A DNA stretch of 64,000 nucleotides from an uncultured Chlamydiae bacterium (lineage in GTDB: Bacteria > Chlamydiota > Chlamydiia > Chlamydiales > JAJFMB01), in NCBI GenBank assembly GCA_963696295.1, contig CAVOJR010000001.1, positions 1,440,001 through 1,504,000 on the forward strand, read 5' to 3'. The notes beneath the pieces were generated by a model. The model was not told the DNA's origin, ran no database searches, and worked only from the letters and a program-made list of their open reading frames with translations. Both the position numbers and the translations under genes were made by a program. Each line of letters opens with the position of its first letter. Within the stretch, counting starts at the first letter, position 1. Positions 40,054-51,858 of the stretch are shown piece by piece.

Positions 40054-40970
40054 GCCGTATATCCCTCCATGACGCCGCGCTATTGTTGAAAAGGGGGGAA
40101 GTCGTGGCTGTTCCGACCGAAACGGTCTATGGACTGGCGGCCTCTTTACACTATCCTGAAGCCATTGATCGCATTTACACCCTCAAGAAGCGCCCTTCGG
40201 ATAATCCTTTGATCATACACATTGCCGATGCTGCCCAAATATTTGCCTTCACCGATGATTTTCCGCAAGGGTTTGAGAAAATTACCTCTCTCTTTTGGCC
40301 TGGATCGCTTACCATTGTGCTGCCCGTAGACGAAAGCAAAATCCCCTCCAGAGCCCGTGCGGGGCTGCCCACGGCCGCCTTCAGACTCCCCAAACACCCC
40401 TTGACCCAAGAGCTCATCAGACAAACCGGCCCTTTGGTAATGCCTTCGGCCAATTTGTCGGGAAAGCCCTCCGGAACCACTCCCGGCCACGTTGAGGAGG
40501 ATTTCGGCTGCCAATTTCCTGTTCTGGATGGCGGCGCATGCGAGCGGGGCATAGAATCGACCGTCATTCGCTTTAGCGGGCGCTGGGAAATTATCCGTCA
40601 AGGCTGCCTTTCAGGAGAGATGTTGAGCGAGGTTATAGGCTATTTGCCTCTCATTTCCAAAAAAAGCGAGAAGCCCGTTTGTCCGGGCCAAATGTATAAG
40701 CATTACGCGCCGAACGCCAAATTGCACCTCACAGGCCATTTTGAACAAGATCGCGTCATCGTGGGCTACAACGGCCGTTCTTATCCCAACTCCAAAAGGG
40801 TTTTTCTGTTAGGAGAAGAGCCGATGCAGATCATGCAAAATCTCTATGGGGTCTTAAGAGATCTGGACCGGGAAGGCATTGTCGAGGCTTTTGTCGACAT
40901 AAATATCCCTGAAAACGGCTTATGGAGCACCATTAGAGAAAGATTACAGCGAGCTGCGAATTCGAAATGA
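40050..40970 (+). CDS. L-threonylcarbamoyladenylate synthase, Sua5 type
   Basis: PTETVYGL, KKRPSDNPLIIH, PSANLSG, PGQMYKHYAP. Confidence 0.93.
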   Translation: MSRISLHDAALLLKRGEVVAVPTETVYGLAASLHYPEAIDRIYTLKKRPSDNPLIIHIADAAQIFAFTDDFPQGFEKITSLFWPGSLTIVLPVDESKIPSRARAGLPTAAFRLPKHPLTQELIRQTGPLVMPSANLSGKPSGTTPGHVEEDFGCQFPVLDGGACERGIESTVIRFSGRWEIIRQGCLSGEMLSEVIGYLPLISKKSEKPVCPGQMYKHYAPNAKLHLTGHFEQDRVIVGYNGRSYPNSKRVFLLGEEPMQIMQNLYGVLRDLDREGIVEAFVDINIPENGLWSTIRERLQRAANSK

Positions 40971-41800
40971 TTTATCCAAAAATTGATACTTCTGTAGAAA
41001 AAATTGCGGCTCATTACAATACTTTTTATGGCATCTACCGCGAGTTGTGGGGGGAGCATCTGCATCACGGCTTTTGGCAAACGGGGAGGGAAACGGTCGA
41101 GGAGGCCACGGTCAATCTCTTGCATGAAGTGGTGAAAAGAGGGCAAATCACTAGCGGGATGAGTATTTGCGATGTGGGATCCGGTTATGGGGCTACCGCC
41201 AGATGGCTTGCCGAGCACTGCCAGGCCAAGGTCACCGGGCTCACCATCTCCGAAAAACAGTACCGGTTTTCAGTCGCCCAAGGGGGGGCCCGCTTCATCT
41301 TGCGAGATTTCCTTGAAAACACTCTGCCCGCCAATGCCTTTGATAGGGTTCTTTCCATTGAAAGTTCCGAACATATGATCGATAAGGAAAAATTTTTTCA
41401 GGAGGCGAACCGCCTTTTAAAACCGGGCGGAAAACTGCTCATCTGCGCCTGGCTTTCTAGCGAGGATCCCTCGCAATGGCAGATCGATCATCTTCTGGAA
41501 CCGATTTGCAGCGAGGGGCACCTGCCTTCACTTGGTTCGATGGAGGATTACCGCAGGCTCGCAGAAGATGCGGGATTTTCCAGGATCGATGCCGTTGATA
41601 TCAGTCAAAATGTGCAAAAAACTTGGGTCATCTCCATTTACAGGGCAATGAAGCATTTTCTTTGCAACAGCGCTTTCAGAAGGGAATTCTTTCATGCGGA
41701 GGCCCGGGACAGGCGGTTTCTCCTGACGCTTTTCCGTTTGCGCGCGGCTTTTTTCCTCAAGTGCTTCCGCTATGCCATTATGACGGCTGAAAAGCGTTGA
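40967..41800 (+). CDS. SAM-dependent methyltransferase (tocopherol/sterol MT-like)
   Basis: WGEHLHHGFW, DVGSGYG, SIESSEHM.DK. Confidence 0.88.
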   Translation: MIYPKIDTSVEKIAAHYNTFYGIYRELWGEHLHHGFWQTGRETVEEATVNLLHEVVKRGQITSGMSICDVGSGYGATARWLAEHCQAKVTGLTISEKQYRFSVAQGGARFILRDFLENTLPANAFDRVLSIESSEHMIDKEKFFQEANRLLKPGGKLLICAWLSSEDPSQWQIDHLLEPICSEGHLPSLGSMEDYRRLAEDAGFSRIDAVDISQNVQKTWVISIYRAMKHFLCNSAFRREFFHAEARDRRFLLTLFRLRAAFFLKCFRYAIMTAEKR

Positions 41801-41832
41801 AATAGTTCGCTCCTCTTGGTAAGATCCCCTTT

Positions 41833-50641: not shown

Positions 50642-50901
50642 AGGAACACCATAGTAAAAAGAACATTTATATAGAGGGAACGGGATTTTTGCCATCAGTT
50701 TGTGGCGTTTTTTCCCCTTGATTTGCATCGTTATAAACTGGCATAATAACACCCTTTATAATTGAATTCCTTAACTATCAACGAAATAGGTTTTTTGATT
50801 GATAAAAGTAGTGGCCAAAAATGAGCGGATCATTATTAAAGGAATTAGCAGTATTTAGTTGGGTTTTTGTATCTAATTGATTGATAAATAGATAGGATAG
50901 C

Positions 50902-51858
50902 ATGGCAGGTTTTAGACCATTTACACCTTTTCCGGGATTGGCGAATCCCCACCTCCAGACCGTAATCGGCGCGATGGTGGGCTGGTATCGCGAGCCCGCC
51001 TCCCGCCATGATCAGGTGCAGCTCCCCGACGGCGACAAGCTCTCCATCGTCACCTCCACTCCGGCGGGATGGCAGTCCCATCAGCCTACAGTGATCATGA
51101 TGCACGGCCTTTGCGGCTCTTCCCTCTCCTCTTATATGCTGCGCGTGACGAGAAAATTGTCCTCGGCGGGCTACCGGGTGGTGCGGGTGAATCTGCGCGG
51201 CTCGGGCCATGGGAAGGGATTGGCGGAGAAGCCCTATCACGGGGGAGTCAGCGATGACTTTTTCCAGGTGTTGCGGAGAGTCAAAGAGGCGCAGCCAGAC
51301 TCGCCCATAACCATGATCGGCTTTTCCTTGAGCGGCAATATTTTGCTCAAACTCTCAGGGGAGATGGGAAGGGAGTTTGAAAGATATGTGGAAAAGATTA
51401 TCGCTGTGTGCCCTTCCGTCGACTTGAAAGATTCCGCCTTCAGGCTGCAAAATAAGGAAAATTTGCTCTATAGGAAGACTTTTCTGGACACGATCATCCA
51501 ATCGGTAGAGAAGAGAAAAAACGGCTACCGTCCGAAGAAATCGCTGAAATCATGCGCCAGCCTGATCGATTTTGATAATCTTTTTACCGCCCCTCTTTGG
51601 GGATTCGAAGACGCCTTTGATTATTACGAAAAATGCAGCTCCATAAAGTTAATTCCCCACATTTCCGTTCCCTGCCATATTTTATTCTCCGACGACGATC
51701 CGATCGTTAACGCTGATCCGGTTAAACAAATCAGGCTGCCGAAGAACATCGATTTGATGATCACGGAGCATGGGGGCCATATGGGCTTTTTGGGCCATCC
51801 TAAGTCCGGGGATTTTCATTGGATGGACTCTTTGATTTTTCACTGGGTACAGACTTGA
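50902..51858 (+). CDS. YheT-like alpha/beta hydrolase
   Basis: NPHLQT, HGLCGS, GFSLSGN, DDPIV, GGHMGF. Confidence 0.88.
   Translation: MAGFRPFTPFPGLANPHLQTVIGAMVGWYREPASRHDQVQLPDGDKLSIVTSTPAGWQSHQPTVIMMHGLCGSSLSSYMLRVTRKLSSAGYRVVRVNLRGSGHGKGLAEKPYHGGVSDDFFQVLRRVKEAQPDSPITMIGFSLSGNILLKLSGEMGREFERYVEKIIAVCPSVDLKDSAFRLQNKENLLYRKTFLDTIIQSVEKRKNGYRPKKSLKSCASLIDFDNLFTAPLWGFEDAFDYYEKCSSIKLIPHISVPCHILFSDDDPIVNADPVKQIRLPKNIDLMITEHGGHMGFLGHPKSGDFHWMDSLIFHWVQT

Follow-up and report, generated by a model that had tools for sequence, protein, structure and literature searches.

A single-module type I polyketide synthase associated with one lineage of type III polyketide synthase cassettes in chlamydiae

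Does a type I polyketide synthase (PKS) that converges on a type III PKS gene within a chlamydial genome provide the starter for its neighbour? The question is raised by a 64,000-nucleotide stretch of DNA from an uncultured Chlamydiae bacterium (GenBank assembly GCA_963696295.1, contig CAVOJR010000001.1). This stretch, here called the window, covers C1:1440001-1504000 of a 3.43 Mb genome that is 97% complete. A preliminary description, made from the letters alone, had proposed a hybrid cluster of six genes in a chlamydia-like organism, and the six reading frames are all present where it had put them. The organism itself was correctly recognized, as its RpoB protein groups with chlamydial genomes. 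The genes that concern us most, and the junction between them, are as follows.

41833-42900, plus strand: type III PKS, 355 aa, Pfam PF00195 and PF02797 above cut-off; C147/H280/N313, Trp236, Ile192, Ser285
42894-43580, plus strand: MT2, class I S-adenosylmethionine (SAM) methyltransferase by Pfam; PRK06202 below cut-off
43577-44620, plus strand: FAD-dependent oxidoreductase of the geranylgeranyl-reductase/flavin-hydroxylase superfamily; TIGR02032 below cut-off, weak PDB matches only
44609-50641 (open reading frame to GTG 50752), minus strand: type I PKS, single module, fully reducing, Pfam KS-AT-DH-ER-KR-ACP
44609-44620: junction at which the FAD and type I PKS genes converge and overlap by 12 bp at their 3' ends

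We consider it reasonably probable that these four genes are a co-inherited unit in which the type I PKS would build an acyl tail and hand it over from its acyl carrier protein (ACP) domain, the result being a phenolic lipid. That the two synthases serve the same pathway, by whatever route, we regard as highly probable. The starting point of the argument is the distribution of the genes. Type III proteins match in 122 of 301 genomes of the phylum (E <= 1e-10), and the arrangement type III gene-MT2-FAD gene, referred to below as the cassette, is one of two layouts in the fetched loci, being found also on high-GC and other metagenomic contigs. Most chlamydiae that carry the cassette have it without a type I partner. 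The KS-AT region matches in 34 of 300 scored genomes (E <= 1e-60, one genome unscored and at most three candidates scored per genome), and the orthologue-like matches among them are confined to G195, G258, G271 and the source genome. A PKS search of whole families gave matches in 3 of 8 genomes of family f13 and 8 of 73 of family f6, six of the latter being orthologues and two (G308, G343) falling outside the clade. After removal of duplicates 11 chlamydial genomes have an orthologue, and their KS domains form one clade (100/100); the type I PKSs of G106, G244, G308 and G343 lie outside this clade and were rejected as orthologues. When species genomes were scanned with KS-AT, 80 loci came up, of which 6 are chlamydial; near the 74 others no type III gene was found (up to 10 kb per side, many loci being shorter).

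Within the chlamydiae the two genes keep close company. They are linked within about 8 kb in 8 of the 11 genomes, the flanks being variable, and occur as separate open reading frames on opposite strands in the window and in all linked relatives. The layout is convergent in five cases (the window, G344, G305/L024, G195 and the decayed G258) and divergent in three (G304/L026, G331 and G303/L028, in the last of which the genes are 7.6 kb apart). The 12-bp overlap noticed earlier is present in the window, and at this junction in L024 the overlap is 20 bp. Besides the unit, no gene is common to the PKS-type III loci. When all 73 genomes of f6 were searched, the six PKS-bearing ones ranked first to sixth by type III score, and in each the type III match is on the contig of the PKS.

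The strongest association is seen in the phylogeny of the type III enzymes. In a tree of 48 proteins from genomes, all 10 from PKS-bearing genomes fall in one clade (clade H, 100/99) and none of the 38 PKS-less ones lies inside it (the phylum sample supplied 29 of these and f6 another 9; a further seven from f6, which have this enzyme type at 45-49% or less and no PKS orthologue, are unplaced in the tree). Clade H was named after the first tree, and G344 and G331, which were found later, are the cleanest test: in both, a clade-H gene lies beside the PKS. The trees of the two synthases are also congruent. Both the KS tree and the type III tree give stars to the pairs window+G344 and G195+G301 and to a six-member core, G304+G331 is starred in the KS tree and has 91/49 in the type III tree, and G271 is basal both in the type III tree and in the KS-AT-DH tree of the longer PKSs. 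The PKS-bearing copies of MT2 and of the FAD enzyme also group together (SH-like approximate likelihood ratio test, 85 and 80, respectively). Kinship of the hosts was considered as the cause of co-occurrence and rejected, since in an RpoB tree 8 PKS-bearing of 29 genomes are scattered (7 changes; mean of the shuffles 7.1) and the approximately unbiased test refuses to unite the PKS-bearing hosts in one clade (p-AU 7.9e-5); this RpoB set is without G302 (low coverage), G344 and G331, and several of its rows are partial owing to assembly frameshifts. The preliminary description had staked its reading on the two genes occurring and clustering together in relatives. They do both, and they co-diverge as well. 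Only one type III match was seen per clade-H genome, so the unit seems to have taken the place of the stand-alone cassette. A metagenome scan with the clade-H alignment gave 80 loci, two of which, L126 (4.4 kb) and L127 (1.6 kb), belong to clade H; no type I PKS match was detected in the 80 loci, L126 and L127 being too short to show or exclude a partner.

Three minor observations concern the loci surveyed here. The second layout of type III genes consists of a distant type III gene, a small open reading frame and a methyltransferase, and forms its own long-branched clade (L114-L123). The rpoB gene is frameshifted in several near-complete assemblies, namely G000 (the source genome; C1:2147799), G195, G270, G301, G305 and G099, probably through assembly errors. 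Single frameshifts in such assemblies, e.g. in the FAD gene of L026, may be artefacts.

The type III enzyme has its Cys-His-Asn triad intact, as had been claimed, and both chalcone-synthase (CHS) Pfam domains. Its best PDB match is the type III domain of Steely1 (2h84), by sequence (E 1.5e-67, the next match being 1.4e-48) as well as by fold (model with predicted local distance difference test (pLDDT) 95, template modelling (TM) score 0.93). In the sequence alignment Trp236 falls on the CHS Gly256 site, and by published equivalences (Pks18 Leu266 and the ArsC Gly284/Met293 spacing) it would correspond to Trp281 of ArsB, a residue that directs aldol cyclisation (PMC6274091; PMC7064976). Because Trp236 stands at this aldol-directing site, an alkylresorcinol rather than a pyrone is predicted. 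Of the product classes listed in the preliminary description, the resorcinol is thus favoured and the alkylpyrone disfavoured. Trp236 is common to 68/68 bacterial and 18/18 protist-clade rows. Other positions set clade H apart. Ile192, at the CHS Gly211 site in the front of the cavity, is present in 10/10 clade-H proteins, as opposed to Ala, Gly, Ser or Pro in 38/38 PKS-less copies, and site 120 is Thr or Ser in 9/10 and Ala in 38/38, respectively. Further residues specific to the clade are Gln193, D32/E34/W36 and K159, several of these positions being charged or aromatic. We find these changes consistent with a changed starter.

The type I PKS is, as first described, a single KS-AT-DH-ER-KR-ACP module devoid of a thioesterase (TE): the Pfam domains agree, the motifs are intact, and no TE, C-methyltransferase or loading domain was detected by Pfam. 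Numbered from GTG 50752, the intact motifs are KS C215/H351/H388, AT GHS655, DH H946/D1100, the NADPH motifs of ER and KR, KR Y1852 and ACP DS2006, and they are kept in the full-length chlamydial orthologues that were aligned. Since the homologues begin at ATG 50641, the protein probably starts there and is 2010 aa long. All aligned chlamydial orthologues have the AT motif IAYHS, which by motif rule we take to indicate the use of malonyl units. The best PDB match is mycocerosic acid synthase (MAS) of Mycobacterium, which has the same domain order and no TE, and the corresponding sites are all intact in the chlamydial enzyme. The methylmalonyl-type AT motif is YASH, however, and MAS-like PKSs are partnered by FAAL and PapA, whereas the chlamydial AT has IAYHS and no FAAL or PapA-type acyltransferase lies beside the PKS. 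A lone module without a release domain would imply iteration and a partner. Members of the wider KS group adjoin other candidate partners: in Methylocystis the neighbour is FabH-like, Thiodiazotropha and Shimia have pyridoxal phosphate (PLP)-dependent genes there, and in Verrucomicrobiota a methyltransferase-like gene is accompanied by a histidine kinase. For this reason the type III enzyme looks like the natural acceptor in chlamydiae.

The relatives deserve a few words on their own account. In Methylocystis (L032:16353-17384) the TE-less PKS lies beside a FabH-like enzyme with a glycosyltransferase and an exporter, and at L036:16507-19239 and L100:16390-17760 such PKSs lie beside PLP-dependent enzymes. 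In Verrucomicrobiota and one gammaproteobacterium the TE-less PKS is followed by a methyltransferase-like gene of 465-477 aa, a hybrid histidine kinase and a response regulator (L029:16357-21561, L030, L037, L043, L061, L071, L097), a set that is possibly a polyketide signalling system. Very large PKS open reading frames (3,600-9,500 aa), in which the KS but not the AT was matched, are present in the chlamydial genomes G095, G127, G170, G200, G271 and G037.

If these features are taken together, the following route can be proposed. The type I PKS would iteratively make a reduced acyl chain, which its ACP would deliver to the type III enzyme at Cys147, the ACP being primed in trans by an Sfp-type phosphopantetheinyl transferase (PPTase) in this genome, or by AcpS in those relatives that have no Sfp-type match. 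The type III enzyme would extend the chain by three malonyl units and cyclise it to an alkylresorcinol, which MT2 would then methylate and the FAD enzyme hydroxylate, giving an alkyl(hydro)quinone-type phenolic lipid. In most related loci MT2 comes after the type III gene, and it is a fixed member of the cassette, with methylation as its predicted role; the FAD enzyme is likewise a fixed member and is predicted to be a ring hydroxylase. A saturated product, direct transfer from ACP to the type III enzyme and a biological role for the lipid are what we infer. The stand-alone cassette would draw on the general acyl pool, and since the unit appears to replace a cassette so fed, its purpose is likely to be a tail that differs in length or structure. 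The FAD enzyme was also considered as a halogenase; this is not supported, since the WxWxIP motif is not kept in an alignment with ChlB4.

A number of observations weigh against the proposed route. In G301 one contig carries both parts at a distance of about 470 kb, in G271 they are on separate contigs, and in G302, whose RpoB is assembled only in part, the PKS is present with no type III match in the assembly. The type III frame of G258 is open, while its PKS contains a stop and is without ER-KR-ACP. As 38 genomes carry the cassette without the PKS, the type III enzyme may not need it. The independent pairs on starred RpoB branches point in the same direction in 5/5 cases, which gives p 0.0625, five being too small a number to attain 0.05, and the congruent trees can be explained by co-transfer alone. 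No Sfp-type PPTase was found with three queries in G195 (97% complete), G258, G301, G303 and G305, i.e. in five of the eight other PKS-bearing genomes searched; this was a loose first-look search, some of the genomes are incomplete, and G305 is without an AcpS match. Lastly, the ACP-binding Arg/Lys site, which we take to lie five residues after the catalytic His, is Ser285 in the window, and Ala, Ser, Leu or Met across the whole of clade H. Bacterial type III enzymes that use ACP have Arg or Lys there (PMC7064976). Because the protist fused type III domains mostly lack this residue too, it is a weak marker; Lys284, which adjoins the site, is present in 66/68 bacterial rows. A complex prediction for the type III dimer with the PKS ACP gave a score of 0.00 (mark 0.32), which we count neither for nor against the route.

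The serine is also found in CepA, which uses CoA substrates, and it invites the idea that supply is indirect, i.e. that an unusual acyl chain, made or extended by the PKS, is set free by a thioesterase or transacylase of general function and then received by the type III enzyme as an acyl-CoA. The fact that, among solved structures, the one closest to the type I enzyme is MAS, which elongates an unusual chain, agrees with this idea, and so do the survival of the unit after gene separation in G301 and the finding that the cleaved type III domain of StlB works alone in Dictyostelium (PMC9489281). However, no thioesterase or acyl-CoA ligase travels with the unit, and the charged and aromatic residues specific to the clade, including those in helix 32-43, would fit a new protein partner; on balance we deem indirect supply rather unlikely, though not negligible. 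The PKS could also have spread with the clade-H cassette on one mobile block, the two making unrelated products. Horizontal spread is evident, the stand-alone cassette is self-sufficient elsewhere, the G271 cassette (L007:281-4000) is just downstream of a tRNA-like sequence recognized by eye, with a SnoaL-like gene after it and a transposase nearby, and the type III gene of G258 is open while its PKS has decayed (L005, G258:C7:2403-8518, where an early PKS stop is accompanied by a deletion by which the beginning of the FAD gene has become fused to the PKS at about residue 1380). Yet the loci share no other gene; linkage is kept through inversion, both parts persist when unlinked, with G195 and G301 being sisters in both trees, a PKS that cannot release its chain needs some partner, and none of the 74 non-chlamydial PKS loci has a type III gene nearby. 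Mere hitchhiking thus strikes us as improbable. Still less probable, in our opinion, is a late acylation, in which the type III enzyme would use an ordinary fatty acyl starter and the PKS chain would later be joined to the phenolic product or to another acceptor. MAS-type enzymes do end with acyl transfer to an acceptor. Also, planctomycete enzymes of the cassette type take C16-C18 acyl-CoA (PMC10896814). Against this, no conserved acyltransferase is present in the loci, and the cavity changes of the PKS-bearing type III copies point to a changed starter.

It is instructive to compare the unit, for which we keep direct supply as the preferred reading, with systems of known product. As a gene set, the cassette resembles hidABC of picocyanobacteria, the hierridin genes, and the planctomycete operon, both of which contain a type III PKS, a SAM methyltransferase and an FAD oxidoreductase. 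These are without a type I partner, though, and use fatty acyl-CoA or acyl-ACP. The planctomycete cassettes make C15/C17 alkylresorcinols to which a C-methyl is added, the role of the oxidoreductase being unresolved there (PMC10896814), and the hierridins are reduced, methylated end products in cyanobacteria (PMC8086630). For other chlamydial type III clusters the top MIBiG matches are hierridin or 'entotheonella' (PMC9666466 Data S10). The likeness to Streptomyces srsABC is at the level of gene functions only. Handover from a type I system is known in Azotobacter vinelandii, where ArsA passes acyl chains from its ACP to the type III enzymes ArsB and ArsC (PMC6274091). The chlamydial type III enzyme shares with ArsB the Trp at the resorcinol-determining site, but it lacks the Lys/Arg at the ACP-binding site (Ser285), and in place of ArsA-D there is one KS-AT-DH-ER-KR-ACP protein, one type III enzyme and the tailoring genes, the transfer being predicted. 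The cyanobacterial cyl, cab, mer and MKS clusters also combine type I and type III enzymes in one bacterial cluster, the type III enzyme acting last and giving an alkylresorcinol (PMC8086630). They have more than one type I gene, a halogenase and alkylating enzymes (PMC8086630), whereas the chlamydial unit has one fully reducing module joined to a hierridin-type cassette. No halogenase, alkylating enzyme or extra type I gene was found among the scanned window proteins or in related loci.

The Steely enzymes of social amoebae, StlA and StlB, likewise combine a reducing type I synthase with a type III part. StlA gives MPBD, a methyl-alkylresorcinol signal (PMC4164351), and StlB gives THPH, leading to DIF-1 (PMC9489281). 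In chlamydiae the parts are unfused, lie in separate genes on opposite strands, and the type I part has no methyltransferase domain. Among the best 150 of 5199 representative matches, which were supplemented with 35 longer proteins, many fusions end in a type III domain, those from Cavenderia, Dictyostelium purpureum, Physarum, Percolomonas and Acrasis among them, and Rhodelphis has a single-domain type III protein. A mixture-model tree of 65 rows unites 18 protist fusion-type rows (100/99), whose sister (99/86) is a pair of proteins, one labelled Waddliaceae; protist and chlamydial type III enzymes, together with one other protein, share a group (98/83 with the mixture model, 96/93 with LG+G4). 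In tests on 45 rows (LG+G4), chlamydial monophyly has AU p values of 0.345 and 0.255, and a union of clade H with the protists 0.132, so that neither is rejected. Clade H as the specific sister of the protist domains was nevertheless set aside, as it is absent from the best trees. A derivation of the Steely type I part from the chlamydial PKS was rejected too: the KS domains of the two are not one clade (p-AU 0.022), and the chlamydial KS nests among bacterial PKSs. As the type III domains group and the KS domains do not, the pairing of type I and type III would have arisen separately in chlamydiae and in protists. With chlamydial monophyly left standing by the AU tests, a chlamydial donor of the Steely type III domain is no more than suggested. 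A bolder version of this idea sees in the unit a bacterial, unfused Steely, with chlamydial symbionts of protists as donors of the type III domain in Steely and Steely-like fusions, a type I part recruited twice by this enzyme lineage, and a short-tailed methyl-alkylresorcinol or quinone product that resembles MPBD and acts on encystment or development of the host; this is highly speculative, and we think it doubtful.

Steely enzymes have been said to be unreported outside slime moulds (PMC9489281). Counter to this, type III fusions occur beyond dictyostelids, in Percolomonas (P0062/P0180), Acrasis (P0010) and Physarum (P0058), and in metagenomic proteins (P0051, P0142, P0011). The parts ahead of the fused type III domain are KS-AT-(DH)-ER-KR, AMP-ligase-ACP-KS-AT-MT-ACP or AMP-ligase-ACP.

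What, then, is new? Type III clusters are common in chlamydiae (PMC9666466; PMC13229535), the type III-MT2-FAD cassette alone is not new, and handover from type I to type III enzymes is known from Ars, Steely and the cyanobacterial paracyclophanes. Data S10 of PMC9666466, a survey of the phylum, lists no type I/type III hybrid among the 32 of 48 T3PKS places covered, and 'T1PKS' occurs in it only as a header and in one stand-alone row. A literature search with little subscription coverage and few supplements gave no report of a fully reducing module tied to a hierridin-type cassette across chlamydiae. The novelty, as far as genomes can tell, is a type I PKS that is tied to one lineage of the cassette and appears to move with it between chlamydial lineages. 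Chlamydial type III PKS clusters have been catalogued without an assigned product, and here one cassette lineage with a dedicated starter synthase stands next to many without, which amounts to a natural paired experiment. The short list of clade-specific residues bears on how type III enzymes become adapted to type I partners that act in trans. The unit is also a case of secondary metabolism that moves between obligate intracellular bacteria, and the kinship of chlamydial and protist type III enzymes makes the origin of Steely, the source of DIF-1 and MPBD signalling in social amoebae, testable.

The genes around the unit are the following.

35448-40970, plus strand: sufB-sufC-sufD-sufS-sua5 run, directly upstream of MT1 (context only)
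40967-41800, plus strand: MT1, RebM/MitM-like SAM methyltransferase; best PDB match 3bus, E 4e-21
50902-51858, plus strand: alpha/beta hydrolase, PRK10985-like below cut-off; a neighbour only, outside the unit

With these the membership originally proposed for the cluster has to be narrowed. The type I PKS, the type III PKS, MT2 and the FAD enzyme stay in, the hydrolase, unlinked and common, drops out, and MT1 is optional. MT1 matches weakly in 9/37 genomes, and its sole close match is a remnant of 58 codons (53%) in G271, the stop of which overlaps the type III start. As a close copy beside the type III gene exists only in the window and as this remnant, MT1 was rejected as a fixed member; it would be an optional and possibly ancestral one. 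The hydrolase matches in 17/37 genomes, with and without the PKS, but it is never on the PKS contig in relatives that have both, and was not found in G258, G271, G301 and G304. Being unlinked from the PKS in relatives, it was rejected as the release enzyme. The plus-strand genes extend the sufBCDS-sua5 run that lies upstream, successive genes overlapping or being separated by 1-32 bp; no suf-sua5 genes stand beside the cassette in the related loci examined. A promoter and terminator scan of the junctions gave nothing specific.

The absence of a PPTase gene from the window, already remarked on in the preliminary description, holds for the 43 window proteins scanned. It is no obstacle in the source genome, where AcpS and an Sfp-type PPTase are encoded elsewhere. 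The latter (L002, G000:C1:28442-34868) lies beside an NRPS-like gene and a 5223-aa KS-bearing open frame, so that L002 is a second biosynthetic region of this genome.

Two other parts of the window may be mentioned. Between 8000 and 34522 the GC content is lower (0.34-0.47). A helicase, an AAA protein and several transposases are encoded there, and a phage integrase gene (33058-34116) adjoins a tRNA-Thr (34448-34522); the stretch is likely an integrated element. At 55787-60520 a 1577-aa Rhs/YD-repeat protein is encoded, followed by a tRNA-Arg (60560-60633), and in G301 the type III cassette has a homologue of this protein about 3 kb away.

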